Below, piece after piece: positions 764 to 63,240 of a DNA stretch of 64,000 nt (position 1 is its first letter; every line of letters begins with the position of its first letter). The stretch lies in NCBI GenBank assembly GCA_964588145.1, contig CAZPNL010000001.1, positions 11,306 to 75,305 on the forward strand, read 5' to 3'. Both the position numbers and the translations under genes were made by a program. This DNA is from an uncultured Gammaproteobacteria bacterium. GTDB taxonomy: Bacteria > Patescibacteriota > Microgenomatia > UBA10105 > UBA927. The notes below the pieces were generated by a model. That model saw only the letters and a program-made list of their open reading frames with translations. It made no database searches and was not told the DNA's origin.

Positions 764-2461
764 CTATCTATCAATCTGCAGCGTAAAGTTTGTAATTGAG
801 CTTGGAACAGTAAATCTATATATACCTGTTTCCCACCTTTTTGTAGTGCCATCTGGTATGGAGGTTCCTTCAAATGTGATGAATTGCCCTGGGGGAGTTG
901 TCCGTAGTTTGAAGGTCTCAGGAATTTTTATAGAGATCAGTTGTGCAGAGTTGGCCACAGTACGGGCATGGGCTGAAATTTGAGTACACGCACCATCTTG
1001 GCAATCAAATTTATACCCAAGAGACCAGATTTTTGGGTACCTACTGGGTTGATAATTGGTGTTGAGGTAATCTAGGTCTGGTTGGGTAGGGAGCCAAAAT
1101 GATTTGCCACTTCGGTCCATAATGATGAATTTGGTTTGGGATTTTATGAGGCTTTCTGCAAGTGTTGGGAGAGGAATAGCGAGTCTTGATGCAAAAGTAC
1201 TGTATACATTGCAACAGATGTAGTATCCATCAGGACGGTACACATATGAACCAACCATGTCGTATATAGGTTCATTTGCGCTACTTATTTTATTTATATC
1301 GTGTAAAACTTGAACTTGTTCGGTATCCAGGTTTCCTGGGTCTATCCGATCTTTGTATTGTGCAAAGTATGAGAAACAGAGAATGCAAAGTAGTGGTAAC
1401 AGTGCGATCCACGACTGCTTGATAGGGATAATTGTGAATATTTTTTGTATGAGATTTCCTGCAGAAATAGCGAGAATATATCCTATTGGGATAAAATATT
1501 GTAGATATGGAGTTGGAAACACATAGAGCATGACACCTGCGCTTGCTAAAAAGATGAGGGTAAATAAGCTAACGTTTGTATATTTTTTTAGAAATACGAG
1601 TGCTCCCAGGATGCCGAATATCCAGGTGGCAGTGCTGATATACCAAGGGAGTGATGGGCCTTCCGCAGTCACATACACGAGTGCTAAGGGGGCAAATGGC
1701 TTCCAGAGTGCAAATGCGCCTTCACCTTCTTTGAGAACATGAGATCCGTGGATGATGTTTTCGTAGGCAAGTGGCAGTGTGCCCTGGATGAGTTGTTGGA
1801 GTATAAATAAGAAGATAGGGGTGCTAAATCCTAATACAAGATGCGGAATATTTCGCTTCGTTATAATTTTTTTATTCCACCAAAGAAAGGCTAATGCAGG
1901 AAGTGCATAAACAATTTTTAACAAAATGAGTACACTAAGTCCTGTGAGTAGACCGATACAATATATATGAAATCGTTTTTGTAGGTTAGGAATATATGTA
2001 AGTGTCGCGTACACAGCCCAAAGGTACATAAGAGTCATAAACATATCTGGACGTACTTCGAGTGATTTATCGATGACCATAGGAAAAACTGCTGCTACTG
2101 CAACGGCGAGTTTGGAAGCAAGCTCAGGGAGGGAAAATTTATGAGAAATTTTATATGTAAGAAGTAGTGAAAGTATCCACAATATAATATGTATGATTCT
2201 GGCAGCATGTAGCGAGTTGGGGCCATCGGGTAAAAGAAATGCGGGGTGAAGGATCCAATAATATACTGGAGTAAAGTTGATAAAAAAATCTTGATAGGGA
2301 AAGTGTCCGTGCAGTATGAGCCAATTCCAATGGAGATGTGCAAACTCGTCTTGATCAAAGTATCTCGTAAGTGCAAGATGGAGTCGCATGGCAACGATGA
2401 GCGCCAGATAAAGTGAAAATACAATATTGAGCGGCGTGATGAGATTCTTGATTTTTTGCAT
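764..2461 (-). CDS. polytopic membrane protein, GT-C-fold glycosyltransferase-like (ArnT/PMT-like first-loop D-Q-D-E motif) with C-terminal soluble domain
   Basis: 565-aa ORF with >=10 predicted TM helices. The first extracytoplasmic loop reads RYFDQDEFAHLHW. A ~190-aa hydrophilic C-terminal domain follows. Confidence 0.5.
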   Translation of the reverse strand: MQKIKNLITPLNIVFSLYLALIVAMRLHLALTRYFDQDEFAHLHWNWLILHGHFPYQDFFINFTPVYYWILHPAFLLPDGPNSLHAARIIHIILWILSLLLTYKISHKFSLPELASKLAVAVAAVFPMVIDKSLEVRPDMFMTLMYLWAVYATLTYIPNLQKRFHIYCIGLLTGLSVLILLKIVYALPALAFLWWNKKIITKRNIPHLVLGFSTPIFLFILQQLIQGTLPLAYENIIHGSHVLKEGEGAFALWKPFAPLALVYVTAEGPSLPWYISTATWIFGILGALVFLKKYTNVSLFTLIFLASAGVMLYVFPTPYLQYFIPIGYILAISAGNLIQKIFTIIPIKQSWIALLPLLCILCFSYFAQYKDRIDPGNLDTEQVQVLHDINKISSANEPIYDMVGSYVYRPDGYYICCNVYSTFASRLAIPLPTLAESLIKSQTKFIIMDRSGKSFWLPTQPDLDYLNTNYQPSRYPKIWSLGYKFDCQDGACTQISAHARTVANSAQLISIKIPETFKLRTTPPGQFITFEGTSIPDGTTKRWETGIYRFTVPSSITNFTLQIDR

Positions 2462-2506
2462 GTTAGGACAAATATACGGAGTAAAGTTCTCCGTGATTCT
2501 TATATC

Positions 2507-4102
2507 ATGAATAGCTATACTAGTGCCATGCTTCGAAAGTATGAAACTTTACTGGCTTTGCTAGTCTGTGTCGTAGTAGTTTTTGCGTCATTATTTCAGA
2601 CGTATGCGTTTGAAGGAGCAAAGCCTGCGGGATATATATCACCGCTTGTGCATGGTTATCAGCCAGACTATTATTATTATCTTTCGCTCATGCAGCAGGG
2701 GGCTGAAGGGAAAATATTAGTAACATCTCGGTATACATCAGAATATTTTGCACCACAGTTTGTCAATACGTTTTTTGTCCTTGCTGGTTTTTTGGGAAGT
2801 GGAGTATTAAGACTATGGATGCCACATGTTTACCTGTTACTTCGAGTGACATTTGGCATATTGGTTTTGTGGGGTGGTTACCGATTGGCAGGACAGCTTT
2901 TTTCTTCGGTATATGTGCGCCTTGGGGCATTTGCACTCATGATAGTAGGCGCTCCGTTTTGGGCAAAACAGGGGGCAATTTTTGTGACATCTGGATCATT
3001 TTGGGCTGAATTTGATCCTGTTGTGCGATTTGTATATTTGCCTCATCATATGGCGGCGATTGTACTCCTCATGTGGGCATTTTATTTGATTCAGACAGCC
3101 AAAACATTTCGAAATTATGTGCTTTCTGGAGTGCTTGGAGCATTGGGAGCATGGTGTAATCCTGCGGTTTTGTTTTTTTATGTTGGAGGGATAGGTATAT
3201 ATGGAGCAGCAAGCATTATTCAGCGCATGCAGCTGAAGATGATTATGCAAACGTTTTTTGTTTTGCTTTTTCCAAGCCTTGTAGTGATAGTCGCCTTTCA
3301 ATTGCTGCAAAATAGTGTATTTCCATGGACAGCGTTTCGAGATTGGGAAGCAGGGATGAGATATGAGCTGAATGGAGTAGGTTTTTTGAATGTTTTGGGC
3401 GTCGTGGGGTATATTGCTCTTCTTGGAATTGTGTTTTGTCTCGGTCAAAAGAATTCGCTTTGGTATTTAGTGATAGGATGGTTTGTCGTACCAATTGTAG
3501 TTTTGACTGTTCCATCCAACCTTTTGCCGCTTAGTAATGCCCGTTTTTTTCAAGGGTTTAGTCATATCCCAGCGGCGCTTTTAGCTGCTGTTGCGATTTC
3601 GAGAATAGTTCGAATTCTTTGGAAGGTGGGGGTGTCTGTGAATGTTTCCCTCATTATTTTTGGCAGTATTTTATCCATAAATGCAATTCCATCGTATATT
3701 GCAAGTTACCAACAGCAAATGGCAAGTGTTGAGCAAGATAGATGGAATATCGTTCAGTATATGTCGCCTGAGGTGTTTGCAACAATGGAAGCATTAACTC
3801 ATCTAGGAAATCATGATGATGTTGTTGTGGCGCCGGGGTGGTTATCTACAATGATTCCTGGAATTACTGACAAGCGAACGATTACAGGACATCCAACGTT
3901 TACTTATGATGGCAATACGAAGGGTGCACATTTGGCTGCCATTGAGCATCCTACGGATATTAGTATTGTTAATGATGTTGCCACAATAGAGCATGTGCGC
4001 TTTATATGGTGGGAAAAATTACAAAATGGTGAACCACTTTATGCCTCAATAGCACAAAAAGTTTATGAAAATGAGAGGTATGCGCTGTATCAATTGTATT
4101 GA
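2507..4102 (+). CDS. polytopic membrane protein, uncharacterised GT-C-like paralog family (member 1 of 5)
   Basis: The track ORF 2456..4102 would overlap the divergent upstream gene, so the in-frame ATG at 2507 is preferred. First-loop motif GYQPDYYYYLSLMQQGAEGKILVTSRYTSE is shared with 4109, 11572, 51988(-) and 53673(-). Many TM helices plus a conserved C-terminal periplasmic domain. Confidence 0.55.
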   Translation: MNSYTSAMLRKYETLLALLVCVVVVFASLFQTYAFEGAKPAGYISPLVHGYQPDYYYYLSLMQQGAEGKILVTSRYTSEYFAPQFVNTFFVLAGFLGSGVLRLWMPHVYLLLRVTFGILVLWGGYRLAGQLFSSVYVRLGAFALMIVGAPFWAKQGAIFVTSGSFWAEFDPVVRFVYLPHHMAAIVLLMWAFYLIQTAKTFRNYVLSGVLGALGAWCNPAVLFFYVGGIGIYGAASIIQRMQLKMIMQTFFVLLFPSLVVIVAFQLLQNSVFPWTAFRDWEAGMRYELNGVGFLNVLGVVGYIALLGIVFCLGQKNSLWYLVIGWFVVPIVVLTVPSNLLPLSNARFFQGFSHIPAALLAAVAISRIVRILWKVGVSVNVSLIIFGSILSINAIPSYIASYQQQMASVEQDRWNIVQYMSPEVFATMEALTHLGNHDDVVVAPGWLSTMIPGITDKRTITGHPTFTYDGNTKGAHLAAIEHPTDISIVNDVATIEHVRFIWWEKLQNGEPLYASIAQKVYENERYALYQLY

Positions 4103-13241: not shown

Positions 13242-14231
13242 ATGAAATCTATCGTAACAGGAGGGTTAGGATTTATAGGCGGTCATTTGGTGGAACAGTT
13301 GGCGGCTCTGGGACATATGGTAGTCGCACTAGATTATATTCCTGCTGGTACAAAGAGAAAGATAGACAAGGTAAAACATAAAAATGTTTCCTATCATGAT
13401 GTTGATATTACTAAAGCAGAGCTTATAGATAATCCGATATTTAAAGATGTAGATTGGGTGTTTCATTTGGCTGGGAGAAGCGATATTGTTCCATCTATTA
13501 CTAATCCAGTTGCATATCACGCAGTAAATGTTACGGGTACAGTGCATGTGCTTGAAGCAGCTAGGAAAAATTGCGTCAAGCGTTTTGTCTATGCAGCATC
13601 TTCTTCTTGTTACGGATTTCCGGATGTGTTTCCAACTTCTGAGACAGCGCAAGTAAAGCCAGAGTACCCATATGCGTTGACCAAGTGGATGGGTGAACAG
13701 TATGTGCTCCATTGGGCACGTGTATATAAGCTTCCAACAATCAGTTTACGTTTTTTTAATGTATTTGGTCCCCGCTCACGTGTGTCAGATGATTATGGAC
13801 CAGTGTTTAGTACATTTATCCCACAATTATTAGCTAGCGCTCCATTTACCGTGGTGGGGGATGGGAGTCAGTCGCGTGACTTTACTTTTGTTACAGATGT
13901 TGCAGATGCATGTATTTCGGCTGCATCATCTGATGTGGTAGGTGAGGTGTTTAACGTAGGTAGCGGTGGAACTTATACTATCAATCATCTCGTCAAGTTG
14001 CTGGGTGGTGGGAATGTTGTCAATATGCCTAAGCGGCCTGGTGAACCTGACAAGACGCATGCAGATATAACAAAAATCAAGAAGATGTTGGGTTGGAAGC
14101 CAAAAATAAGTTTTGAAGAAGGTGTCAAAATAGTATTGTCTCAAAAGGAATATTGGAAAAATGCTCCTGTTTGGTCTGCTATCGATATACAAAAAGCAAC
14201 CAAAGATTGGTTCACATATCTTTCTAAATAA
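13242..14231 (+). CDS. NAD-dependent epimerase/dehydratase (extended SDR, GalE/UXS-like)
   Basis: N-terminal Rossmann motif TGGLGFIGGHL. Catalytic YALTK (YxxxK) and ASSSCYG motifs. GGAGG Shine-Dalgarno 9 nt upstream. Confidence 0.75.
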   Translation: MKSIVTGGLGFIGGHLVEQLAALGHMVVALDYIPAGTKRKIDKVKHKNVSYHDVDITKAELIDNPIFKDVDWVFHLAGRSDIVPSITNPVAYHAVNVTGTVHVLEAARKNCVKRFVYAASSSCYGFPDVFPTSETAQVKPEYPYALTKWMGEQYVLHWARVYKLPTISLRFFNVFGPRSRVSDDYGPVFSTFIPQLLASAPFTVVGDGSQSRDFTFVTDVADACISAASSDVVGEVFNVGSGGTYTINHLVKLLGGGNVVNMPKRPGEPDKTHADITKIKKMLGWKPKISFEEGVKIVLSQKEYWKNAPVWSAIDIQKATKDWFTYLSK

Positions 14232-14308
14232 GAATTTAGACATTTAGTTTTGTCTTCAAGTATGAAGTGTGTGTGTTGCTGTTGATTATTGGGAGAAATA
14301 GAATTTAT

Positions 14309-15052
14309 ATGAAATTATACGAACAAACACGTGAGGTCATTTATGATACACAAAATAAAGATCCATTTTTTTGGTATCTGACGCGTAAACTTTTTAGTTC
14401 TGTAGATGTACAGCGCGGCGGCGTTGTGTTAGATCTTGGATGTGGATCCGGAAGGAATACGTTTTATGCAGCTCAATTAGGGCTTACTGCTATAGGTGTG
14501 GATTATATGCAAAAGGCTGTTGAAAATGGTAATGCACATGCAAAGAGCGAGGGTGTTTCAAAACGAGTCAAGTTTGTACGGGCAGATTTAACAAAGCTTC
14601 GACCAAAACAATTTGGACTCGTAGATTATGTGATCCTCAATGAAGTAATTGAGCACATAGAGAATTATCAAAAAATTGTTGATTTTGCCTATGAGAGCTT
14701 AAGACCTGGTGGTAAATTATTGCTCACGACACCAAATGATCCTATATTTTGGACAATTTTAGATGATTATGCGCAGCATGTACGTCGATTTCGTATTTCT
14801 GAAATAGCGAGTGCGTTTCGTCAATTCTCATATGTAGAAATATCGACCGTGGGATTTCCGCTTCATAAACTTGTTATATATTTATATGACAAGTTCTCTG
14901 TGAAAAAGAGAGTGGGGCACAATCCGAAGACATTTCGAAGTAGTTCTATTGTTTCCAAAATGTATTATTTTATCGGTACTATCGTTATGAGTATCGACAA
15001 TTTGTTTCATACTCAAAAAGGTACCACTATTGTAGCGATTGGTACTAAATAG
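14309..15052 (+). CDS. class I SAM-dependent methyltransferase
   Basis: VLDLGCGSGRNTFYAA SAM-binding motif I. Motif-post-I region LLLTTPN. ATG 14309 preferred over the track start 14267 because of the GGGAG SD at 14291. Confidence 0.65.
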   Translation: MKLYEQTREVIYDTQNKDPFFWYLTRKLFSSVDVQRGGVVLDLGCGSGRNTFYAAQLGLTAIGVDYMQKAVENGNAHAKSEGVSKRVKFVRADLTKLRPKQFGLVDYVILNEVIEHIENYQKIVDFAYESLRPGGKLLLTTPNDPIFWTILDDYAQHVRRFRISEIASAFRQFSYVEISTVGFPLHKLVIYLYDKFSVKKRVGHNPKTFRSSSIVSKMYYFIGTIVMSIDNLFHTQKGTTIVAIGTK

Positions 15053-15199
15053 AGAGTATAGATGTTGCTTTTGCATTATTTATATTATCGTATTCAAGTA
15101 TAAATTCATAAAATTTATATGTTCGCAAAAACTTGTAAATCATGTATAGTATTCATAAATCACCTGCCTAAGTTGTCTATACTCGAGTTAAAATATTGG

Positions 15200-15208
15200 T
15201 GATATTAT
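15200..15208 (+). promoter_or_regulatory. extended -10-like element TGaTATTAT 8 nt upstream of ATG (possible leaderless transcript)
   Basis: tgatattat is followed by agattttATG at 15216. No SD is present. Located in a 163-bp AT-rich gap. Confidence 0.2.
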
Positions 15209-15215
15209 AGATTTT

Positions 15216-16754
15216 ATGGGCAGAATGAGTGATACAAAAATTTCAAAAATTAGTGTCCTTGCAAAAACGATTCGCAGGATTAAAAAGGAACACAAGAAGA
15301 TTGTCCTCTGTCATGGAGTTTTTGATCTCATACACCCAGGCCACATACGACATCTACAATCAGCTAAAGAATTTGGTGATATCCTTGTTGTCACAATAAT
15401 CGCAGATAAACATGTAAACAAAGGACCGGGGAGACCAATATTTCATGAAGATTTACGAGCAGAAGTGATTGCATCGCTAGAATTTGTTGATTATGTGGCC
15501 ATTGTTAATAGTGAAACAGCCAAACATGCAATTAATTTGCTTATCCCAGATGTGTATGTAAAAGGTGCGGAACATAAAAATCGGCGGACAAACCCACTTT
15601 CACAACAACAAGAGCTAGATGAAGAAAAAGCTATAAAGGCAGTTGATGGATTAGTTCAATATACAGATGATATTGTATACAGTTCTTCCCATTTAATTAA
15701 TCAATATTTGGCAGTATATCCTACACGGACAAAACAATTTTTAACTCAGTTTCGGAAAAAGTATTCAGATGCATTTGTCATAGAAAAGTTAGCAGCACTT
15801 CGTAAATTATCGGTGCTGGTTATAGGTGATGCGATTATAGATCAATATTATTATTCAAAACCAATGGGCAAGTCGACGAAAGAGCCGATTGCTGTGCACA
15901 AATATTTGTCAGAGGAGTCATTTGCGGGGGGTGCGCTTGCAGCTGCAAACCATGTAAGTGCACTATCTGAAAATGTAACACTTTTGACGCTTTTGGGAAA
16001 GAAAAAATCATTTGAAGGGTTTATACGTAAACATTTGCGTTCAGAAGTATCACCAAAGTTCTTTTATAAAAATAATAGCGGAACCATTATTAAACGTCGT
16101 TTTATAGATGAGCTTACGAAGCAAAAATTATTTCAAATCAGCTATATCAAAGATGAAGATGTGGATGAGAAGTTGGAATCGTCTGTAATAGATTGGTTAA
16201 AAGGCGAACTGCCTAAATATGATGTTGTAATTGTCAACGACTTTGGGCATGGATTTGTGACGAAAAGAATGATTAAGACTATTACAGCACTCGCGAAATT
16301 TTTGGCTGTCAATGTGCAGGCAAATAGTGCAAACTTTGGTTTTAATGTCGTGACCAAATATCCTCGGGCTGATTTTGTCTGTATTGATGATACCGAATTA
16401 CGGTTAGCTATGCACGACAGGTATGGAAATCTAAATTCGCTTGTGAAGCGGATTGGATCTAAATTGAAGTGTAAAGAAATACTCGTTACAAAAGGTCAAC
16501 ATGGATCAGTTGCATATTCAAAAAAGGATGGATATTTGGAAACGCCATCCTTGACTGACAAAGTAGTTGACAGAGTAGGAGCGGGAGATGCATTATTTGC
16601 TATATCATCGCCACTTGTGGCTATGGGGTTTGAGAGAGAGCTCGTAGGATTTGTGGGAAATGTAGCAGGAGCACTTCATGTGCAGACCGTTGGAAACAAG
16701 CGGACTATGCAGTTTGATGAAATGGCCAAATTTATCACGCGATTATTAAAGTGA
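15216..16754 (+). CDS. bifunctional sugar-phosphate nucleotidyltransferase / pfkB-family sugar kinase (HldE/RfaE-like with reversed domain order)
   Basis: The N-terminal 140 aa (CHGVFDLIHPGHIRHLQSAKEFGDILVV...RPIFHEDLRAEVIASLEFVDYV) match the cytidylyltransferase-like RfaE domain II with its HxGH motif. The C-terminal 330 aa (VLVIGDAIIDQYYYSKP ... DRVGAGDALFA) match RfaE domain I heptose-7-P kinase / pfkB kinases. Confidence 0.6.
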   Translation: MGRMSDTKISKISVLAKTIRRIKKEHKKIVLCHGVFDLIHPGHIRHLQSAKEFGDILVVTIIADKHVNKGPGRPIFHEDLRAEVIASLEFVDYVAIVNSETAKHAINLLIPDVYVKGAEHKNRRTNPLSQQQELDEEKAIKAVDGLVQYTDDIVYSSSHLINQYLAVYPTRTKQFLTQFRKKYSDAFVIEKLAALRKLSVLVIGDAIIDQYYYSKPMGKSTKEPIAVHKYLSEESFAGGALAAANHVSALSENVTLLTLLGKKKSFEGFIRKHLRSEVSPKFFYKNNSGTIIKRRFIDELTKQKLFQISYIKDEDVDEKLESSVIDWLKGELPKYDVVIVNDFGHGFVTKRMIKTITALAKFLAVNVQANSANFGFNVVTKYPRADFVCIDDTELRLAMHDRYGNLNSLVKRIGSKLKCKEILVTKGQHGSVAYSKKDGYLETPSLTDKVVDRVGAGDALFAISSPLVAMGFERELVGFVGNVAGALHVQTVGNKRTMQFDEMAKFITRLLK

Positions 16755-16776
16755 TTTAATGAGGAAAGGATATGCT

Positions 16777-18793: not shown

Positions 18794-18796
18794 GCT

Positions 18797-46304: not shown

Positions 46305-46707
46305 GATTGGGGATGACTTCCAGTGGTACGACATAATTTGAATTAATTCGAAGTTGTGTTTGTCCACTGTATCCGCTTGCCATACGTATGGTGTAGGCTC
46401 CTGTATTGACACGAAACTGAGCAGATCCTGAGCTATCGAGATATTGTCGTAGAAAAATTCTACTCCCATCTAAAACCACTTCTACGGAGCCTGATGTAAT
46501 GGGTTCTTGCGTTTTAATGTTTTTTACATTTACCGTGAGCGTATGTGGTGGCAATTGCAGCGAGCGACCGCGTGGCGAAGATACCAATAGTGCTGCGACA
46601 ACAAGGAGTGTTGTCGTTAGTACACTCAGTGTCATCACAACTGGTGTGCGATATTTTTGTATAAAATTATTTGAGGTATTGGGCAGGTTCATACCTATAC
46701 TTAGCAT
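46297..46707 (-). CDS. small signal-anchored/secreted protein with beta-sandwich-like domain
   Basis: 136 aa. An N-terminal hydrophobic segment VVMTLSVLTTTLLVVAALLVS, then alternating beta-strand-like sequence. Convergent with the epimerase, 8-bp overlap. Confidence 0.4.
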   Translation of the reverse strand: MLSIGMNLPNTSNNFIQKYRTPVVMTLSVLTTTLLVVAALLVSSPRGRSLQLPPHTLTVNVKNIKTQEPITSGSVEVVLDGSRIFLRQYLDSSGSAQFRVNTGAYTIRMASGYSGQTQLRINSNYVVPLEVIPNLN

Positions 46708-48475: not shown

Positions 48476-48495
48476 GAATGAGTATAATATAGCAT

Positions 48496-49293
48496 ATGAT
48501 TTGGATTATTTTGCCTGTGTATAATGAGGAAAAAAATTTGGTTGGGGTCCTTGACGCCATAGGAGTAACTCTCAAAGACGAGTCTCATCGTGTTGTTGTA
48601 GTCAACGACGGAAGCACTGACAGGACTGCATCGATATTGGCAAATATAAAGGATCGCAGAATATCTACCATAAGCTATCCATTAAATGGAAATATTGGTA
48701 CGGCTTTTTCTAACGGCATAGAATTTGTTCTGGCTCATGGTAAAAAAACAGATGTTGTTGTAATTATGGAATCAGACGGAACCAGTGATGTGTCGCTGTT
48801 ACGACAGTTTGTGACTACGCTACACACTACAAATGCAGATGTTTGTATCGCGTCGCGCTACCAGAAGGGCGGAAGATATGTCCATTTTCCATTTGGCCGC
48901 ATGCTTACCAGTGCTTTGGCAAATTATAGTTTGCGTACTCTTTTCCCTATAGCGGGTGTCAAAGACTATACGATTTTTTACCGTGCGTATAGAGTGGGTA
49001 TGTTGCACTATGCAACGACTGTTTTTAGTTCATATGGATTGATACGGGGTACGGGATTTGTGGCAAATGCGGAGCTGCTTGTAAAATTAGCATTTTTGGG
49101 GGCACATGTCTGCGAAATACCACTTGTATATGATTATGGAAACAAAAAAAGTAGAAGCAAGATGGGGGTAGTAAAAACAATCTTTGAATATTTATTTATC
49201 ATTATACATTTTTATGCTATACAAGAAGCTCTCGTCATAAGAAGTGTCGGCAATCAACTTCCTAAATATTTTGCCAAAAAAGTAGTAGAGTAG
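48496..49293 (+). CDS. GT2 glycosyltransferase, DPM1/polyprenol-phosphate-sugar synthase-like
   Basis: MIWIILPVYNEEKNLVGVLD ... VVVVNDGSTDRTASIL. 265 aa. Confidence 0.65.
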   Translation: MIWIILPVYNEEKNLVGVLDAIGVTLKDESHRVVVVNDGSTDRTASILANIKDRRISTISYPLNGNIGTAFSNGIEFVLAHGKKTDVVVIMESDGTSDVSLLRQFVTTLHTTNADVCIASRYQKGGRYVHFPFGRMLTSALANYSLRTLFPIAGVKDYTIFYRAYRVGMLHYATTVFSSYGLIRGTGFVANAELLVKLAFLGAHVCEIPLVYDYGNKKSRSKMGVVKTIFEYLFIIIHFYAIQEALVIRSVGNQLPKYFAKKVVE

Positions 49294-49300
49294 TGTAAGT

Positions 49301-50593
49301 ATGAGGGTACAAAGGTATATAAATTTTTCATCAAAATTTATACTTCTTTTATTGTTTTTTTTGGTCGTGGGAATTGCGCTCAGGCTGTTTATGCTTTTGT
49401 ATGCCACTACGGCACTCATGTGGGACAGTTGGATTAATAGTGATTATGCGGTGCAGCTGATGACTGGGCATGTAATCGCTGACCCACGCGATCGTAATTT
49501 GGGATATTCTGCTTTTTTAATGATCGTCTATGCATTTTTTGGTTATGAAAATATATACGCAGTACAGATCGTGCAGGTATTGCTCGACGTATATATTGGA
49601 ATTATTATTTTTACTACCACAGCTGGGATGTTTTCAAAAAAAATTGCGAGTTACTCATTTGCCTTGTACATGATCAATCCATACACAGCATCTTACACTG
49701 GGATGATATTTTCTGAGATTTTTACTATATTTTTATTTTGCTCTACTGCGTATGTCATTAGTCTTGAACAGTTTCGGTATCAAGTTCGCTTGTGGATACT
49801 ATACGGTTTTTTGTTGGGCTGGATAATATTTGTGCGACAGCAGTTTGTGTTTTTTTCTTTTTTTATATCATTTGTGATAGGTATTTTGGTAATACCCAAA
49901 AAGAAAATTATATTATTTCTTTTGTCAACCTATATTTCTCTTCTTGTGGCAAACAGCTATACGCTCTACTCGTATTGGTACAACTATAAACAGATTTCAT
50001 TATCGCCTCCGTATAATGTAAAAAATGCTGCACTGTATCTGATGTTTGAGATGTCTCGTCAAACGCCATCTCTGATAGACGATAAAAGTGGAACAGGTTA
50101 TTTTTCTCGTATGGACGATGCATATGTGCATATTGTAAATGAGTATTATGCTACTCCTCTTGAGCAGATGAGTGCATTTCAAGATAAATATACTACGTTA
50201 TTTATAGAAAGATTGCGTTTGGACTGGCAAGTATTTGTCACAAGGATTATTCGAAATGTGTTTTTGATTTGGGATAAATATTATCTGTGGTATTACGTTG
50301 ACGAGTGGTATCCGATAGACAAAATTCCTGTGCGATTGGGTAATATTGTGTATGTAGGAATTAGTTTTTTGGGACTTTTACGTATTTGGCTTTTTAATGT
50401 GAGATTGCGTCGTCATCCAGTCACGGTTTTTAGTTTAGGTATGGTGCTATATATGACGATTGTGTTTAGTCTCGTGTCATCGGAGCCTAGGCATACGCTC
50501 GCATATTATGGTATATGCGCAATTTGGCTTGGGTATCAGGTGCGCGAATTTGTGCAGCATTTGCCTCAGTGGGGGTTCAGGTCGAATGTGTAG
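49301..50593 (+). CDS. polytopic membrane GT-C-like protein (ArnT/PMT-like first loop)
   Basis: 430 aa with ~11 TM helices. First loop MWDSWINSDYAVQLMTGH resembles the DE-x-RYA-x-I-A-x-x-M pattern. Confidence 0.45.
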   Translation: MRVQRYINFSSKFILLLLFFLVVGIALRLFMLLYATTALMWDSWINSDYAVQLMTGHVIADPRDRNLGYSAFLMIVYAFFGYENIYAVQIVQVLLDVYIGIIIFTTTAGMFSKKIASYSFALYMINPYTASYTGMIFSEIFTIFLFCSTAYVISLEQFRYQVRLWILYGFLLGWIIFVRQQFVFFSFFISFVIGILVIPKKKIILFLLSTYISLLVANSYTLYSYWYNYKQISLSPPYNVKNAALYLMFEMSRQTPSLIDDKSGTGYFSRMDDAYVHIVNEYYATPLEQMSAFQDKYTTLFIERLRLDWQVFVTRIIRNVFLIWDKYYLWYYVDEWYPIDKIPVRLGNIVYVGISFLGLLRIWLFNVRLRRHPVTVFSLGMVLYMTIVFSLVSSEPRHTLAYYGICAIWLGYQVREFVQHLPQWGFRSNV

Positions 50594-51986
50594 CGTTTTG
50601 TGTTTTCTTTGTTGTAACGCGCCTAACTGTTCGTATCATAAACAATATTCCATTGACTGAAAGTAACACCATGATTGGATAAAATGGCATGATATATCGG
50701 GCATCAGGATAGGCAAACATCGCAATTGGGATTTTACCCAGTATGATAATGCCGCTTAGTAATCTCATATATACATTTCCAAAAACTATCCCTATCAAAA
50801 GGGACGGAAAAAAAATCCATACAGACCATATGGGAAAAATGTGTAAATTTATCCAATCGCTCAGTTGTAAATATGACTTCCATGTCGTATATGTGTGTGC
50901 AGTTTGAATCATGGGTGTGCACATGGTAAATTTTCCCAGTGGATCACAGTTAACTGGATATATATTGGATGGAGGATTTGCATCTTGAGTATACTGCAAA
51001 TTAGGCCACCAGGGACTGCCAGAGCGGTGTGATTGAAAAAAATTATATACTGTGAGCCGTGCGAAATCTATAGGGTATGTTTTGATAGCGGCAAGTCCCA
51101 CATTTCCTAATACTCTATCGATCGTATGCCAATCAAATCCAATTTTTTTAAAGAAATATGGCTCCATTTCCCAATATGGTTGATAGAGATCAACGCCAAT
51201 TGGTACGTATTTGCGAAGTTCGATCATAGAAGGATCAGTTTCGGGAGGAAGTCTTTTTGCAACCGAAACCATCTGTATATGATAGCGAACAGACTGTGTA
51301 CTGCTTAAGCCAAAAATCCCGGTAATATGGGTTTGAATTATGATCCATGCTCCTATGCTGGCTAGCCCTATGATAGGTAGTGCATATGATTTTGGGTGGA
51401 TTTTTGGTTTGTGCCAGAGAAACAGGGCAAGTGCTACTATGCCATATACGAGAAATGCATATTTCCACAAGCTACTTAGAAATCCAAACCATGTCAGGAG
51501 TGATAGATAATGTATTTTTTTGGTAACTGTCCAGAGATATAAAATAAAAATATAGACCGTGAGTACTAATTGAGCTGTAATGTCAGTCATCAGATATGAG
51601 ATGAATACCAGATTAGCCGGTAAGAGCGCATGTATGCAGCTTACGATAACTGCATACTCGTAGCCGATCATAGGTTTTAGTATTTTATATAAAAGTAACG
51701 TTGTTAGCCCTAGTGTGACTATTTGGATGAAGTGAAGTGAAATATCGGCGCGTGGGACATACTGTAGTAGCGCCAGAAGTACACTGTATAGCGGGGGTTC
51801 GCCTGTGGGTACAAAGCTGTAGGGATGTGCGCCATAATTTGGCACAAATTCTCCAGTCTTGAAATACCATGACAATACCCACGAGAACCAGCTATCAACA
51901 TTGCTATTTATCCACGCAAAAAAGAAATGAAAAAAACCTATAGCAATCGTGAAAATTATAGTAGTATGCGCAATATTTTTGAGCAT
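50577..51986 (-). CDS. polytopic membrane GT-C-like protein
   Basis: 469 aa with many TM helices. First loop NVDSWFSWVLSWYFKTGEFVPNYGAHPYSF. Confidence 0.45.
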   Translation of the reverse strand: MLKNIAHTTIIFTIAIGFFHFFFAWINSNVDSWFSWVLSWYFKTGEFVPNYGAHPYSFVPTGEPPLYSVLLALLQYVPRADISLHFIQIVTLGLTTLLLYKILKPMIGYEYAVIVSCIHALLPANLVFISYLMTDITAQLVLTVYIFILYLWTVTKKIHYLSLLTWFGFLSSLWKYAFLVYGIVALALFLWHKPKIHPKSYALPIIGLASIGAWIIIQTHITGIFGLSSTQSVRYHIQMVSVAKRLPPETDPSMIELRKYVPIGVDLYQPYWEMEPYFFKKIGFDWHTIDRVLGNVGLAAIKTYPIDFARLTVYNFFQSHRSGSPWWPNLQYTQDANPPSNIYPVNCDPLGKFTMCTPMIQTAHTYTTWKSYLQLSDWINLHIFPIWSVWIFFPSLLIGIVFGNVYMRLLSGIIILGKIPIAMFAYPDARYIMPFYPIMVLLSVNGILFMIRTVRRVTTKKTQNATHST

Positions 51987-51987
51987 A

Positions 51988-53676
51988 TTAATCCATCAAT
52001 TTATATATTCGGATTTTTTCGTTTTCATAGCCAATTGTCACATATTTCATTGCTGTAGTGGGAACGCGACTATTGGTTGGACTTGTGATAATATAGCCGA
52101 TTCTATGATTTGGAAAAAAAGACTGAATTTCGTCTTCGCTCATTGCATTAGTAAAAAATCTGTTTCGTAGACTCTCTTTTACATCTGGGTAAAGCGTGTG
52201 CAGTGGGTGTCCAAGGAAGGATATTTTTTCTGTAAATACTGGGATAAGAATTTCTACTCGCAACACATCGTCAGAGAGAACAACCTTTTTGTTTTCTGGC
52301 TCATTTTGATTTTTAAGCCAGGCAAATGCATCGATAAAATCATTTGGAACATGATTGTATTGGGTGTCCATCAACAACCAGTAATTCTCAAAAGGTGTTA
52401 TACGATTTGATATTTGTTTGTAATTGGCGGGTATTGTGTGCAAGAGATATATGCTAAATGCACTTAATAACGCTAATGTTTTTAGAAATCGCAATGTATG
52501 TAAAAATGGGATATTCAGTACAAGCTGGGGAATTTCAATAATACCAATTGCTGCTACAACTGAGAGAAATCCGTGGGAGATAGGGTGAAAAAATCGTATC
52601 GGAGACGCACCTATAAGGCTTGGTAGGGGAGAATAGTAGAGGCCAATAGCTGAAAGTGCATAGAGTGCAAAGGTTTTTGCAGTCGTATTTGCTTTATAAA
52701 AATATCGATATAAGCCAAATGGTATAAAGAGCATAATGGGGCCATGAGACTGAAAAAAGTGTGAAAATTCTCTGGGGACTTGCTGGTAAAGTTCCCATGT
52801 TTTTGCTGCAGCAAAAGGTGCTAGAGATAGCTCCACAGAAGTTATGTAAGCGACGGGGAGAGATATGATACCGGTGATTGTGATGGGAATAAGAAGTCGA
52901 AGATTATTATGACGAAGAGTTTGCCACAGTGATAGTATGCCTGCCCCTATCAAGAGCGCCATAGCTTGCATGGGGTAGGCTGACGTAATGATGATTGTTA
53001 ACAATATTTGTGTACTGTAGGTGCGCACATTTTGTTTTTCTAAAAGTTTGGCAAAAGAGATAATAAATAAAATGATAATTATAGATTGGAAAACTTGATG
53101 GGGTACACCTCCTAACCTCCAAAATGATGGTGTGGGGGAAAACCATAATTTATCAGGAAATCGTATGACCCCGTGATAAAAGAGGTTTTCTAGAGATATA
53201 AAAGGTGATGCAGTGAGAATAATAAAAAGACTAAGCAATCGCTTCGTTTTGGAAAGAGGAAAAATTTTTGTAAGGAGTATATGCCACATGGTAATGAGCG
53301 TTACAACAAGAAGCATGAGAGAGATGTTGTAGGAACCAAATGGATCTAGCCCTACCAGATGACCTAAAAATCCAATTGTGGCGTTTTGCCAATATAGCCA
53401 AGTAGTTCTTTGCGGTTCATTGGTAAATAAAAAATTTGTTAGTATTTTTCCTTCTGCGCCCTCCGCCATTTGATAGGTATAGAGAAAATAGTCAGCAAAA
53501 TAGTGGGTTATGGCAGTAAAATAGTAACCGGGTGGATTTGATACCCATTGGATAATAACTTGGAGTGAATTTAAGAATGTAAAAATAAGAGTTAGCGCAG
53601 TGACTATAAGTCGTTCATCATGTTTTTTGATACATGTCTTAATGCTCTGTAGATGCAATGGGTCAAACTGTTTCAT
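51988..53676 (-). CDS. polytopic membrane protein, uncharacterised GT-C-like paralog family (member 4 of 5)
   Basis: First loop YFADYFLYTYQMAEGAEGKILTNFLFTNEPQ. A C-terminal periplasmic domain is shared with the family. Confidence 0.55.
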   Translation of the reverse strand: MKQFDPLHLQSIKTCIKKHDERLIVTALTLIFTFLNSLQVIIQWVSNPPGYYFTAITHYFADYFLYTYQMAEGAEGKILTNFLFTNEPQRTTWLYWQNATIGFLGHLVGLDPFGSYNISLMLLVVTLITMWHILLTKIFPLSKTKRLLSLFIILTASPFISLENLFYHGVIRFPDKLWFSPTPSFWRLGGVPHQVFQSIIIILFIISFAKLLEKQNVRTYSTQILLTIIITSAYPMQAMALLIGAGILSLWQTLRHNNLRLLIPITITGIISLPVAYITSVELSLAPFAAAKTWELYQQVPREFSHFFQSHGPIMLFIPFGLYRYFYKANTTAKTFALYALSAIGLYYSPLPSLIGASPIRFFHPISHGFLSVVAAIGIIEIPQLVLNIPFLHTLRFLKTLALLSAFSIYLLHTIPANYKQISNRITPFENYWLLMDTQYNHVPNDFIDAFAWLKNQNEPENKKVVLSDDVLRVEILIPVFTEKISFLGHPLHTLYPDVKESLRNRFFTNAMSEDEIQSFFPNHRIGYIITSPTNSRVPTTAMKYVTIGYENEKIRIYKLMD

Positions 53677-55301
53677 AGTTTTACCTGATATAGAATAGCA
53701 GAAGGATTTTGATAATACACTTTGAGAAATGGATAGATACGCGTTAAATCAATTTGAGACTCATATTTTGTTTGCAAAATATACCTAATATGTTGGCTTT
53801 GTAAAAGTTCCAAGGTACTAGTAGGGTCTTTAGATCCTGCTAATATTTGTTCAGCGATAGGATTTTTTTGATACAGATCTGTTGTGGCGAGAAAATGACC
53901 TGTAAAGCTTGTGTGTCCACTGAGGGCGGGACCCAGTAGATCCATATGTGATGTGGGGGATGCAATGAATGCATTATTGTAATTGGTGTCTTTGGAAAGT
54001 TCGAGGAACGCGTTGTAAATATTTGAGTCTACATACATCAAGGGTTGTGCGTAGTTAGTTGTTTGTATTTTTTGTTGAACTTCCCAGATTAGTGTAGGTG
54101 CACTAAATATAATAAAAATAGCTGCAAATGTTGGATAAATCCACGCATGCCAACTGGGAAATCTATTGATAATAAATTGTTTTATCCATATATATGATTG
54201 TATGGAAAAATACCCTAAAAATATACTTGTTGCGGGGAATAGAAGTCGGAGATTTGAGAAGCCTAATGTTTTGGGTATTGGAGAGAGAAATGCTCCATAT
54301 GTGCATACAATAAGAACCATGCCAAATGTTTCAAACCACGTTTGTCCTTTTTTAAGAGTAAATACAAATGCAATGAGCGTGAGGTAGCTTGCAGGACCTA
54401 TGGAGAGTAGGAGGAAAGGCAGATCAGTATAGCCCTGTTGTGATGCTTCCCAAATTTTTGATTGGATATGTGGTTGTTGGCTCAGAAAATAAGAAGTGAG
54501 CGCAAAAGCAAATATACATCCGATTGTACTTCCGATCATGAGAGTATGCGAGAGGAATGACGGCCTACGCTTTAGTATTACAATTTGGATGATACCTGTT
54601 ACCCACATCGCGCCCATGTATACGCCTGCCTGTATTGGGTTTAAAGTTGTTAATAGTGCTAATGCAATGATGGCTAGGAGCCAATAGGATTTGTGTTGAT
54701 TTGATTTTATGAGACTTAATAAAAATATATGTGCAAATATGGTTTGTGTAAGTTGATGGGGGGCGCCACCGAGTCGGTCAAATGCAAAATGCGGCGTTCG
54801 CCATATTTGAAATGGCCAATAAACTATGCCTTTATCTGGAGTATGAATTCTGTTCATGATGGATGTTGAGCATGTGCTTATGATGAAAGCTAGGAGTATA
54901 AGTTTGGAATTGTGGGGAAGGAGTATGTGTAATACTTTTGCAGATAATAAGAGCATGATCCAGGCTAGGATAATAAGTGAGAGGTTGTATGATGCGAACT
55001 GATCTAGTCCCAATACGCCTCCAGTTTTGCCAAGGAGGACATTTGACCAATAGATAAAACTAGGAAGTGTTGGCTCTGTCGTATATTTATTGTGTGTGAG
55101 CCATCCTCCGTGTGCGCCTTGAAAAAAATGATTGAGGTAGAAAAAATAATCTTCATAATAATGTGTTGTTGCAAGAAACACTGTCTGTGGGGGCTGTTTT
55201 GAGATTGCTGTAAAAAAATGTGACACATTTAGAAGTGATACAACCGTACTCATGAGAATGATACTCATCCATATTTTTTTCATACGCATATGAGAGGCCA
55301 T
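53673..55301 (-). CDS. polytopic membrane protein, uncharacterised GT-C-like paralog family (member 5 of 5)
   Basis: First loop HYYEDYFFYLNHFFQGAHGGWLTHNKYTTEP. 4-bp overlap with the downstream paralog. Confidence 0.55.
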   Translation of the reverse strand: MASHMRMKKIWMSIILMSTVVSLLNVSHFFTAISKQPPQTVFLATTHYYEDYFFYLNHFFQGAHGGWLTHNKYTTEPTLPSFIYWSNVLLGKTGGVLGLDQFASYNLSLIILAWIMLLLSAKVLHILLPHNSKLILLAFIISTCSTSIMNRIHTPDKGIVYWPFQIWRTPHFAFDRLGGAPHQLTQTIFAHIFLLSLIKSNQHKSYWLLAIIALALLTTLNPIQAGVYMGAMWVTGIIQIVILKRRPSFLSHTLMIGSTIGCIFAFALTSYFLSQQPHIQSKIWEASQQGYTDLPFLLLSIGPASYLTLIAFVFTLKKGQTWFETFGMVLIVCTYGAFLSPIPKTLGFSNLRLLFPATSIFLGYFSIQSYIWIKQFIINRFPSWHAWIYPTFAAIFIIFSAPTLIWEVQQKIQTTNYAQPLMYVDSNIYNAFLELSKDTNYNNAFIASPTSHMDLLGPALSGHTSFTGHFLATTDLYQKNPIAEQILAGSKDPTSTLELLQSQHIRYILQTKYESQIDLTRIYPFLKVYYQNPSAILYQVKL

Positions 55302-59188: not shown

Positions 59189-60784
59189 ATGTCTAACACT
59201 GCCACAAAAAAGTCTGCACAACAGTTGTCGGAGGTACAGCCTCAATTTGAACCAAAGGTGACATCTCTTGCATCTACACCTGTTGATGGTAGCGTTACTT
59301 CTAAAAAAGATGTGAGCACGCAATCGCCACCAACGAGCAATGAACAAGGTAAAAAAGATTCTACTCCTCATATAGACAAATTTCAGGAAATTGCAGCGTC
59401 TACTGCTCAAGTAGATCCACAGGCAGTAGCATCTGATACGGCTGAGCGTGCAAATATCACCAAATTGCCATTTTTTACAGCATTTATAGGGCTTGTGTTG
59501 GTTGTGAGTGCGGGAATTGGACTTTATTCGATGCGTGAAGAGATTGGTTTAAGTGCATTATTTGCCTCCAAACCAACGCCAACTCCAACATCGATACCTA
59601 GTGATCCTCAGGCAGATTGGAAAACGTATGCACTCAAGAGTGTGCCTTTTCGTTTTAAGCTTCCGCAGTCGGTAGAAGCAAGTGGATCTCAAATGGTTCG
59701 GAAATTAAAAACAGGAATTGAGGAGTGTTTTTTAGCAAAGTATACAGAGTCTCAAGCGTCAATTGATAGCGCAACAGAAAGTGCAAGCATGCGAGCGGAA
59801 AGAAATGAAATCTGCGGGCAGACGCAGGCTGACTTAGTCATTTCGATGCCTTCAGTTGATGTGCCTATGGCAAAAAAACCAACTTTTTTTGATATTCGTA
59901 GTTTTGAAGCAAGTGATGCTGCTGTTCGAGTAGTATACAAAGATGAGACTTCTGATACGGTACCTGCTGATAGGTATGAAATCGTAGCGAACAATACAAA
60001 AGTGAAAGCGCTTGTCCTGTATGGACCTGATGATACGCAAAATATAGATCAAAAAATAGAGGATCTCCCATCTTCTGTTGTGCCTATCAACTATATAGGA
60101 GCCGTAGTAGAAACACATATACCAGCATTTCCGGTAGTATATGTACTTTTAAAAGGTACTAAATCGAGTATGCGTACGACATTTGTTGATATTGTTTCAA
60201 CTTTTGAAATAGAACAACCAGAAGTGAAACGCAGTGGAAAACTTCTTGTTGATCCAAAAAGTGAGTTTGCATTTGGTAATCCGTATCCTTCCGAGATAAG
60301 TATGCTTAAAGATGAGGAGCTTGTGCAAATTTCCTGTTCGACTAAATATATGAAACAAATAGGTGGTATATATAGCGACTCGAGTGGTGAAGCTATAAGT
60401 AATGATACAGTAAATAATATATTTGAATCATATAACAAGGGAAAGACTGATGCTGATTGGATTGCAGCAGGATTTTTATGTACCTCGGAATCTACGACTG
60501 TTTTAGTGTATGAAATATGGAAAGGTGGAGGAGGACTTGAGAATGCTGCGTATGTTTCAAAAGTTGATGCGAAAGGAGTATTAACTTCTCCTATCAGGAT
60601 TGTGTCAAATGGCGCGCCATATTTTGGTTGCTCAGAGCCAATCGCTCTTACAAAAGATGATCAATTTTATCTCTCTTGTCTAGGCGGCGATGGTCAGTAT
60701 GGGAAGAAATCTTTGTATCAAGTTGACATGGGCGGTGCCAGTGTAAAAAAACTTATTGAGTACGAGAGTTCATCTTCACAGTAG
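59189..60784 (+). CDS. single-pass membrane-anchored surface protein with Pro/Thr-rich stalk and large extracytoplasmic domain
   Basis: S/T-rich low-complexity N-terminus. One TM helix (FFTAFIGLVLVVSAGIGLY). Then KPTPTPTSIPSDPQ and a ~380-aa C-terminal domain. Confidence 0.5.
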   Translation: MSNTATKKSAQQLSEVQPQFEPKVTSLASTPVDGSVTSKKDVSTQSPPTSNEQGKKDSTPHIDKFQEIAASTAQVDPQAVASDTAERANITKLPFFTAFIGLVLVVSAGIGLYSMREEIGLSALFASKPTPTPTSIPSDPQADWKTYALKSVPFRFKLPQSVEASGSQMVRKLKTGIEECFLAKYTESQASIDSATESASMRAERNEICGQTQADLVISMPSVDVPMAKKPTFFDIRSFEASDAAVRVVYKDETSDTVPADRYEIVANNTKVKALVLYGPDDTQNIDQKIEDLPSSVVPINYIGAVVETHIPAFPVVYVLLKGTKSSMRTTFVDIVSTFEIEQPEVKRSGKLLVDPKSEFAFGNPYPSEISMLKDEELVQISCSTKYMKQIGGIYSDSSGEAISNDTVNNIFESYNKGKTDADWIAAGFLCTSESTTVLVYEIWKGGGGLENAAYVSKVDAKGVLTSPIRIVSNGAPYFGCSEPIALTKDDQFYLSCLGGDGQYGKKSLYQVDMGGASVKKLIEYESSSSQ

Positions 60785-61606: not shown

Positions 61607-61689
61607 GTGTGGCTCACATGCTACAGTATGATCATATTAAAGGTCAATATGAGCATATCTCCATAGTCTGTATATGAGGTAAGCAAGTT

Positions 61690-63240
61690 ATGCATAGATT
61701 GCGTAGCTTTAAACAATTACAATTAATGAATATTGATATGTTTACTCTAATGAACATTATTTGTTGTCGCCAAAAACATGTGAAATTGATAGGAACCGTA
61801 TGTACATTCGTTGTGTTTGGGGTACTGTTATATAGTGTTGTACTTTCGGGTATGCGCTATCAATATGATTATGATGAGTTGTCGCAGCTTCAGACTTTGT
61901 ATCTCATTTTTACTGGAAATATACCTTATAAAGATTTTTATTATATCTATGTGCCGTTTTTACACATCCTCGTGCTCCCTATATTTTATCTATGGGGAGC
62001 TAACTTTGAGACTGCATCGATATTAAGACTGATCATGATAGTGCTTTTCCTGACGAGAATTTTTATCGTTGGTCTAGCTATCAAGAAGATATTGAATTGG
62101 AAAATAGGCAGACTGTATGCATTTTTGAATCTATTTGATGCAATGACTATTTTTGCTGGGATGCAGATTCGTGTAGATAACCTCATGCTTTTTTTCTATA
62201 GTATTGCATTGTACTTTGCTGCCAGATGGGTGAATGAGCTTCGTTGTAAATGGTTGTATTGGGCTTCATTATTTTGGGGTCTATCAAGTCTTGCAAATAT
62301 AAAATTATTTCCTAGCTTTATCATAATTTATATAGCAATAGCTGTGTATTTGCTTATGCGTAAGTCATATAGAATATGGATTTTATCGCTTTTCATAAGC
62401 GCTCTGCCTTGGATTGTGTCGATGCTTATTATGGCTGCCTGCGGTGCGCTTCCAGATATGATTCAGCAGGTTTTTTTGGATCCGCAAAAATTTTTGTCTT
62501 CTGTGGATTATCCAACGCTCTACGGAGCTATGTATAGACCTGACAATGATTTGATGTGGGGCGCTTCAGGTGCGCCTATGTTGTGGCATTATACGCAATT
62601 TCTCCTTTGGGGTGGCATAGCCGGAGGAATGATAGTAATTATTGCTTTTGTTCGAAATACTATATTCACAAAATATCGTTGGCCGTTTCTTGTGTTAGCG
62701 CTCAGTGCTTTGGGTCAATGGTATGTGCTCACAACTATAAAGACAGCGTTTATACAGTATTATTTACCTCTTCACATATATGCAGCTTTGTTTAGTGCCT
62801 TGTTTTGCGGTTTTTTATTTTCATTACGCGTAAAAATTTTTCAAAGATTTTTTAGTGTGGGTATTGCGATTTTTGTTGTGTTTTTAACCTATGTGAGCTT
62901 TAACGCAAATGTCTATCGGTCATACGCGACATCAGATGAAATTTTCCGTAGAACTCAGCTCGTATGGGACGTAATCCCTGAAGGATCTAAAACGTTTCCA
63001 GATGTACTGTTTCGTCCAATAGCCTATCCTCTGACTGTTGGGTACTTTGTGGGTGTCCAAACGTCGGAATTACAATCTCGGTATCAGCCGATGGAATGGT
63101 ATTTAGAAAAATATCAGGTTCCCTATCTCGTACTGGATGAGTTTCGTATGGTATATTTGTCTCCACAGACAAAAGAATATATACAACGACACTATGCGTT
63201 GGTATCTGGAGAATTATGGATATATAAGCGAACTTTATGA
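61690..63240 (+). CDS. polytopic membrane GT-C-like protein
   Basis: 516 aa with many TM helices. First loop RYQYDYDELSQLQTLYLIFTGNIPYKDFYYIYVP. Followed by a GT2 gene with an ATGA overlap. Confidence 0.45.
   Translation: MHRLRSFKQLQLMNIDMFTLMNIICCRQKHVKLIGTVCTFVVFGVLLYSVVLSGMRYQYDYDELSQLQTLYLIFTGNIPYKDFYYIYVPFLHILVLPIFYLWGANFETASILRLIMIVLFLTRIFIVGLAIKKILNWKIGRLYAFLNLFDAMTIFAGMQIRVDNLMLFFYSIALYFAARWVNELRCKWLYWASLFWGLSSLANIKLFPSFIIIYIAIAVYLLMRKSYRIWILSLFISALPWIVSMLIMAACGALPDMIQQVFLDPQKFLSSVDYPTLYGAMYRPDNDLMWGASGAPMLWHYTQFLLWGGIAGGMIVIIAFVRNTIFTKYRWPFLVLALSALGQWYVLTTIKTAFIQYYLPLHIYAALFSALFCGFLFSLRVKIFQRFFSVGIAIFVVFLTYVSFNANVYRSYATSDEIFRRTQLVWDVIPEGSKTFPDVLFRPIAYPLTVGYFVGVQTSELQSRYQPMEWYLEKYQVPYLVLDEFRMVYLSPQTKEYIQRHYALVSGELWIYKRTL

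Follow-up and report, generated by a model that had tools for sequence, protein, structure and literature searches.

What is a single stretch of bacterial DNA doing with seventeen genes for large membrane proteins of the kind that transfer sugars? The stretch, 64,000 nt of contig CAZPNL010000001.1 and referred to here as the window, is 95% coding and contains 52 open reading frames (ORFs) of at least 150 aa. Seventeen of these encode polytopic membrane proteins of 424 to 888 aa with 6 to 13 hydrophobic segments each, and together they take up 29,976 nt (46.8% of the window). A first-pass annotation had listed them as GT-C-fold glycosyltransferase-like; their number and positions were borne out by analysis of ORFs and transmembrane (TM) segments. 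Genes are named below by the first coordinate given in Table 1. Our reading is that the window is probably a cell-envelope glycan island, in which the seventeen GT-C transferases form an extracytoplasmic line fed by polyprenyl-phosphate monosaccharides.

The proteins show the polytopic core, with 7 to 13 TM helices in the GT-C arrangement, that defines the superfamily. None of the seventeen classifies as a transporter or permease. The acidic residue expected in the first extracytoplasmic loop is present throughout: in 17 of 17 proteins this loop, which follows TM1, contains an Asp or Glu. The TM1-proximal Asp is invariant in an alignment of eight PMT_2-like proteins, nearly invariant in the YfhO set (D50), and invariant or nearly so in a family designated group A (D47). 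The core reading, that these are GT-C-type enzymes, holds on the evidence of fold and homology, and transfer from a lipid-phosphate-linked donor is predicted from the adjacent GT2 genes.

Assignment to individual families was made against the Pfam gathering cut-offs of 26.1 bits for PMT_2 (PF13231) and 28.5 bits for YfhO (PF09586). Only six proteins score above them, two for PMT_2 (764 and 46766) and four for YfhO (7266, 9377, 24044 and 31864). In the YfhO type the PF09586 alignment is limited to the last 60 to 90 residues; these proteins are also homologous to PF09586-bearing proteins along their whole length, sharing the N-terminal D50 and a PLWNP-like motif. Five further proteins (49301, 50577, 56325, 57767 and 61690) give sub-threshold PMT_2 matches of 18.4 to 21.9 bits (E 2e-4 to 3e-3), each at the equivalent N-terminal position and with the profile nearly fully covered. 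For the remaining six (2456, 4109, 5995, 11491, 51988 and 53673) neither Pfam nor NCBIfam gave a match, and none of the seventeen reaches an NCBIfam cut-off. For 5995, which lacks a family match, there is nevertheless a full-length BLAST match to 49301 (E 6e-15). ArnT/PMT-type or YfhO-type features had been claimed for all seventeen; five of them, which make up group A, are of neither type and lie closest to archaeal AglB/STT3. The large periplasmic C-terminal domain is likewise found in part of the set: eight proteins have a soluble C-terminal tail of 111 to 203 aa, the four YfhO-type proteins have instead a loop of 272 to 376 aa ahead of the last TM helix, and five compact proteins have neither.

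At least six paralog groups were distinguished by BLAST and hhalign, where at least five had been proposed. By hhalign, 61690 matches the 764 group (95.7% over 406 columns) and the 56325/57767 pair matches the 5995/49301 group (94.8%). Local hhalign runs with thin alignments join only groups B and E, 764 and 61690, and groups C and D, and when the group A profile is compared with that of the PMT_2-like set the match is weak (58%). Because this comparison is weak and hhalign links so few of the groups, sequence alone cannot unite them. Searches of PDB sequences with 764, 24044 and the PMT_2-like (A4) and YfhO (A5) profiles gave no meaningful matches, and a metagenome scan with the 5995 alignment returned nothing.

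Group A has no database model. Its members (2456, 4109, 11491, 51988 and 53673) are mutually related by BLAST, are about 520 to 620 aa long, and have about 11 TM helices and a 120-aa C-terminal domain. Residues D47, Y51, R167, P172, H173 and R339 are invariant. In fold and in C-terminal domain the group is closest to archaeal AglB/STT3, with AftA and ALG12 also near the top of the structural matches. A profile built from 51 group A sequences matches 3vu0 at E 3.3e-6 and 3vgp at 1.3e-3, with yeast STT3 in the same register (a separate search gave a weaker signal), and the C-terminal core (CC) domain fold that follows the last TM helix in STT3, AglB and PglB is present. The WWDYG motif of GT66 is absent: profile alignments to 3vu0, 3vgp and 2lgz place non-conserved residues there (“APxxV” in 2456, “setlg” in the group A consensus). 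By its sequence, group A has an AglB/STT3-like architecture yet is without one defining feature of that family, since its C-terminal domain matches while the WWDYG positions are not conserved. Note that the group is large. An exhaustive metagenome profile search returned 9,211 representatives of 50%-identity clusters at E ≤ 1e-3 and 3,375 at E ≤ 1e-30; for reference, 51988 scores 460 bits against the profile. Among 51 diverse members, 50 had no Pfam match, and the few that carry a name are listed as “hypothetical protein”.

The first-pass annotation had described an extreme expansion, heavily diversified and arranged in tandem arrays. Clusters do exist, but they are mixed-family cassettes and not runs of recent duplicates, and the first of them begins at 764, on the opposite strand. 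This cassette, consisting of a divergent 764-like gene followed by 2456-like, 4109-like, 5995-like and two YfhO-type genes, is kept in seven of the contigs compared (L002; L004 to L007, from JGI metagenomes; L011, GCA_041753515.1; and L012, Candidatus Gottesmanbacteria RBG_16_52_11) and partly in L001 (CAZUOM010000007.1). Cassette relatives share 30 to 50% amino-acid identity and have a GC content of 44 to 52%. Orthologs of 764 (34 to 41% identity) occupy the equivalent position in the seven contigs, orthologs of 4109 (47 to 51%) are found in L002, L004, L011 and L012, and L012 carries eight or nine such genes within 22 kb. In a neighbor-joining tree of group A, every window paralog falls in its own clade with orthologs from other genomes, 11491 doing so with L011 and L012. 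Because the paralogs are distributed in this way, the group A duplications are older than the divergence of these organisms. Paralogs within the window are 20 to 48% identical to one another, the most recent duplicate pair being 56325/57767 at 48%. The GT-C gene set is, on this sequence comparison, old and conserved; it is not a recent lineage-specific expansion, and “expansion” or “heavily diversified” cannot be kept in the sense of recent amplification.

The closest named relatives are Gottesmanbacteria, of the Patescibacteria/Microgenomates group. The source organism is most likely, to judge by its genes, a member of the candidate phyla radiation (CPR), a Microgenomates relative of Gottesmanbacteria that is probably ultra-small. 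L001 carries the same kind of island in a metagenome-assembled genome labelled “uncultured Gammaproteobacteria”, though its gene-order relatives include a Gottesmanbacteria (CPR) genome; mis-binning or horizontal transfer could account for the conflict. A gammaproteobacterial origin, as that label would have it, is unsupported. Next to the cassette in L002 (1-4459), L011 (584-4894) and L006 (1749-6397) are an unannotated or YfhO-like protein of 640 to 870 aa and an NPCBM-domain protein, a pair not seen in the window.

On the donor side, all five GT2 genes that had been called lipid-phosphate-sugar synthase-like contain PF00535. Proteins 37199 and 48496 match the catalytic domain of Pyrococcus furiosus dolichol-phosphate-mannose synthase (DPMS; residues 23-246 of 374, E ~1e-12). 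For 37199 this DPMS is the top PDB match (5mlz, E 1.7e-12, residues 4-223), and GtrB (5ekp) and ArnC come next. At 232 to 265 aa, the window GT2s are without the TM domain found in DPMS, GtrB and ArnC. By sequence, the five are polyprenyl-phosphate-sugar synthase-like.

Two of the GT2 genes, 34500 and 37199, are followed by pairs of genes for small membrane proteins, designated a and b (35210/35679 and 37912/38426), with overlapping stop and start codons; the stop codon of the GT-C gene 31864 in turn overlaps the start of 34500. The a/b genes appear to be translationally coupled to the preceding TM-less GT2. Each a/b protein has about three TM helices and a soluble domain of about 70 aa with a weak winged-helix signal (HTH_45 or HxlR-like). 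The six a/b proteins of the window and L001 are homologous in one alignment and match no known family. In L001 the GT2-a-b trio (a/b at 16314-17302) also occurs, followed by a group B GT-C gene orthologous to 49301. An ArnE/F-like flippase identity was dropped for these proteins in view of their three or so TM helices, winged-helix-like domain and lack of a family match. By analogy, we infer that a/b may serve the GT2 as anchor or activator, and possibly also flip its product. GT2s with small membrane partners are known from DPM1/DPM2/DPM3. Another parallel, for a TM-less GT2 with such a partner, is GacI/GacJ (PMC8035078). No Pfam match to a GtrA-, Wzx-, MATE- or SMR-type flippase was found in the 52 ORFs, nor is any intergenic gap large enough for one, leaving a/b as the only flippase candidates in the window. 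The same 52 ORFs include no clear GT-B enzyme, priming phosphoglycosyltransferase, Wzx, Wzy or ABC exporter. A 326-aa ORF without a family match (26800-27780) resembles the C-terminal Rossmann half of glycogen phosphorylase at no better than chance level (E 0.56) and might be a cryptic GT-B-like protein.

Folds, family relationships, synteny, orthology and the retention of a candidate catalytic Asp were read directly from these comparisons. Beyond them, we infer donors, a flipping step, sequential action and an acceptor as follows. Short-chain dehydrogenases/reductases (SDRs), an HldE-like enzyme, thiamine-dependent two-carbon transferases, reductases and methyltransferases would produce several modified nucleotide sugars in the cytoplasm. 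At the inner membrane face, the five short DPMS/GtrB/ArnC-like GT2s would attach single sugars to polyprenyl phosphate. After flipping, each of the seventeen GT-C enzymes, from at least six sequence families, would pass a sugar from this carrier on to an acceptor outside the cytoplasm. Most likely they would work in fixed steps, assembling or decorating a conserved surface polymer, much as the Aft and Emb enzymes do with mycobacterial arabinan or the lumenal ALG enzymes do in the endoplasmic reticulum (ER). One such line on one polymer is favored because the paralogs have their own orthologs in the same gene order. What stands of the first-pass proposal is surface glycosylation with lipid-linked monosaccharide donors, as far as fold and homology of the GT-C proteins and their synthase-like neighbors carry it; its heavy diversification does not. 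As candidate acceptors it had named protein, a teichoic-acid-like polymer and S-layer glycan.

The acceptor might instead be protein (S-layer, pili or secreted proteins with Ser/Thr/Pro-rich linkers), with the PMT_2-type proteins acting as O-glycosyltransferases and group A as oligosaccharyl- or monosaccharyl-transferases with a non-canonical acceptor site. The kinship of group A with AglB/STT3 in fold and C-terminal domain is in keeping with this, as is the fact that PMT_2 is the protein O-mannosyltransferase family. Three membrane-anchored or secreted proteins without a family match are encoded in the window, at 1-740 (minus strand, partial ORF), 59189-60784 (plus strand) and 46297-46707 (minus strand), and are possible glycosylation acceptors or acceptor-binding partners; the first two, which have Ser/Thr/Pro-rich linkers just outside the membrane anchor, are a further point for protein targets. 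However, group A has non-conserved residues in place of WWDYG, the motif with which oligosaccharyltransferases bind the sequon Ser/Thr, and seventeen enzymes are far above any known protein glycosylation system. We regard protein targets as a minority possibility that deserves to be kept in mind.

Could the island be a variable, horizontally exchanged decoration locus of the Gtr serotype-converting type, in which alternative GT-Cs diversify surface antigens against phages or hosts? GT2 and GT-C genes do form modular pairs (48496/49301, 63237/61690 and 34500/31864), the duplication of 56325/57767 is fairly recent, and GC content varies from 0.34 to 0.44 within the window. This explanation fits the second half of the window, which has few orthologs in the comparison loci, better than the first, where order and orthology of the cassette are kept across seven contigs at 30 to 50% identity. 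The window has no mobile-element gene, no tRNA and no long repeat, Rfam, tRNA and repeat scans having given nothing of relevance, and for the island as a whole we consider such exchange rather unlikely. Less likely again is that some of the GT-C-fold proteins are non-catalytic, serving as lipid-linked-sugar flippase partners or scaffolds in the manner of Agl23 or GPI-transamidase subunits. That would account for the missing flippase, and 46766 has a sub-threshold match to TIGR03663 (Agl23; 2.7e-6), but the candidate catalytic Asp is found after TM1 in every protein and group A keeps R167, H173 and R339, invariant polar residues typical of an active site. An assembly artefact (collapsed or chimeric repeats) has a negligible chance of explaining the GT-C density and is refuted by a longest internal DNA repeat of 127 nt at 71% identity, a 100% identical Logan assembly from run SRR16481182 covering window positions 46782-53840 (7,059 nt), and synteny in six independent contigs of other organisms.

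Returning to the envelope glycan island, a more specific version can be offered tentatively, and we would not be surprised to see it fail. Group A may be an unrecognised glycosyltransferase family derived from AglB/STT3 minus WWDYG. Together with the PMT_2-like and YfhO enzymes, the TM-less DPMS-like synthases and a/b (as anchor and/or flippase), it might build a major envelope glycopolymer wholly outside the membrane, without the usual cytoplasmic GT-A/GT-B assembly, in a CPR lineage.

Comparison with known systems places the island as follows. Multi-component (three-component) transmembrane glycosylation systems have been described in GtrB/GtrA/GtrC, CsbB/GtcA/YfhO and GacI/GacJ/GacL (PMC8035078). 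Three-component systems with GT-C enzymes are also treated in PMC11127046, which shows that the founding of new GT-C families, GT136 among them, continues. As in the Gtr, Csb and Gac systems, where adjacent genes specify a GT2 that makes a polyprenyl-phosphate monosaccharide and a polytopic GT-C (PMT_2, YfhO or unclassified) that transfers the sugar outside the membrane, predicted synthases of this kind are encoded next to GT-C genes in the window, and the TM-less GT2 with a small membrane partner recalls Gac in particular. Unlike them, it has seventeen GT-C genes for five GT2 genes, where known systems have one to three pairs per genome; it lacks a GtrA or Wzx flippase, and its small partners are a conserved heterologous pair of 3-TM/winged-helix-like proteins. 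Several distinct GT-Cs that work one after another on a single acceptor, with polyprenyl-phosphate monosaccharides as donors, are known from mycobacterial arabinogalactan/LAM assembly (AftA-D and EmbA-C, with decaprenyl-phosphate-arabinose) and from ER-lumenal ALG3/9/12/6/8/10, but the window proteins are not sequence members of these families, their donors are apparently made by GT2s and not by the PRPP route, and their genes are far denser. From AglB/STT3/PglB (GT66), group A differs not only in WWDYG but in being much shorter, in having five differentiated paralogs per genome and in having no Pfam STT3 match. ArnT/PMT (PF13231; GT83/GT39) is approached by the two proteins above the cut-off, the five below it that match over the equivalent N-terminal region, and the first-loop Asp in all, yet no NCBIfam equivalog is reached and the compact forms of 430 to 480 aa lack the usual C-terminal periplasmic domain.

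The proposed precursor pathway is represented by the block at 13242-24040 and by other genes of the island. In total there are four SDR epimerases/dehydratases, an E1 alpha/beta pair, two split transketolases, a C-methyltransferase, three TylF/Methyltransf_24-type methyltransferases, several class I methyltransferases, SDR reductases, a Zn-dependent alcohol dehydrogenase and a HAD-like plus APH kinase protein. Thiamine-dependent two-subunit enzymes occur in three sets, E1 alpha/beta at 17825/18797 and split transketolases at 22094/23108 and 40590/41644 (regions 15216-24040 and 40590-42642), which adjoin a sugar C-methyltransferase-like gene (19904) and SDRs. This combination suggests, from gene content, synthesis of branched-chain or chain-extended sugars. 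Block 15216-19897 has 52 to 61% identity in L001. The HldE-like bifunctional protein (15216-16754) has its domains in reverse order, the nucleotidyltransferase coming first and the PfkB kinase last, and both are below NCBIfam equivalog cut-offs. At 38880-40583, a HAD-like N-terminal region with a DxDxT-type motif (“IDLDNT”) is fused to an APH/choline-kinase-like domain, and a kinase/phosphatase for sugars or head groups is a possible function. All 2-kb bins have a strongly positive GC skew (0.10 to 0.25) whatever the gene strand, and cumulative skew climbs monotonically.

Table 1. GT-C, GT2, a/b and sugar-precursor genes of the window (positions in nt; GT-C and GT2 proteins with PF/NCBIfam scores or E values).
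Feature	Position	Strand	Evidence and remarks
GT-C, PMT_2 type, 565 aa	764-2461	-	PF13231 40.4 bits; 203-aa C-terminal soluble tail; divergent first gene of conserved cassette
GT-C, group A	2456-4102	+	Likely start at 2528, giving 524 aa
GT-C, group A paralog, 617 aa	4109-5962	+	BLAST to 2456, 2.7e-14; D47, R167, H173, R339 present
GT-C, compact group B, 424 aa	5995-7269	+	Full-length match to 49301
GT-C, YfhO type, 721 aa	7266-9431	+	PF09586 29.9 bits, C-terminus only; D50 and PLWNP motif
GT-C, YfhO type, 732 aa	9377-11575	+	PF09586 31.4 bits; 36% identical to 7266, BLAST 4e-150
GT-C, group A paralog, 570 aa	11491-13203	+	BLAST to 2456, 3.8e-11
Sugar-precursor block	13242-24040	+	SDR epimerases/dehydratases, HldE-like kinase/nucleotidyltransferase, E1 alpha/beta, C-methyltransferase, SDR, split transketolase
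GT-C, long YfhO type, 888 aa	24044-26710	-	PF09586 54.1 bits
Short GT2, 242 aa	30254-30982	+	PF00535; paralog of 37199 and 34500
GT-C, long YfhO type, 879 aa	31864-34503	+	PF09586 43.6 bits; opens four-gene module with GT2 and a/b pair
Short GT2, polyprenyl-phosphate-sugar synthase-like, 239 aa	34500-35219	+	PF00535; 41% identical to paralog 37199
First a/b pair of small membrane proteins	a 35210-35689, b 35679-36179	+	After GT2 34500
Short GT2, polyprenyl-phosphate-sugar synthase-like, 237 aa	37199-37912	+	PF00535; PDB matches
Second a/b pair of small membrane proteins	37912-38424, 38426-38947	+	After GT2 37199
GT-C, PMT_2 type, 569 aa	46766-48475	-	PF13231 37.4 bits
GT2, DPMS-like, 265 aa	48496-49293	+	PF00535; DPMS 5mlz, E 8e-13 over residues 3-237
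GT-C, compact group B, 430 aa	49301-50593	+	PMT_2 E 0.0019, sub-threshold; NF047440 1.6e-4
GT-C-like, compact singleton, 469 aa	50577-51986	-	PMT_2 E 5.8e-4, profile 2-156 of 160, sub-threshold
GT-C, group A paralog, 562 aa	51988-53676	-	BLAST to 53673, 2e-38; to 4109, 5e-10
GT-C, group A paralog, 542 aa	53673-55301	-	BLAST; group A invariant residues; tree
GT-C-like, compact group E, 481 aa	56325-57770	+	PMT_2 E 0.0026; NF047440 2e-4
GT-C-like, compact group E, 462 aa	57767-59155	+	PMT_2 E 2.2e-4; BLAST to 56325, 4e-147
GT-C-like, 764-related, 516 aa	61690-63240	+	PMT_2 E 0.0015; hhalign to 764 group
Short GT2, 232 aa	63237-63935	+	PF00535 70.7 bits

New here are the number and density of GT-C genes in one conserved island and an AglB/STT3-like family without WWDYG and without a database model; the a/b accessory pair is new as well, and so is the apparent lack, over 64 kb, of glycosyltransferases for cytoplasmic assembly. 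Searches of the available literature found no paper that describes any of these four in CPR bacteria. The work flags a large unannotated GT-C family near the oligosaccharyltransferases and a candidate pair of accessory proteins for polyprenyl-phosphate-sugar synthases of the TM-less kind. Very little is known of the envelopes of CPR/Patescibacteria, although it is through them that these episymbionts attach to their hosts. Genomes of this lineage are very small, about 1 Mb. In such a lineage, a conserved block of which nearly half codes for GT-C proteins implies a large, obligatory investment in extracytoplasmic glycan.

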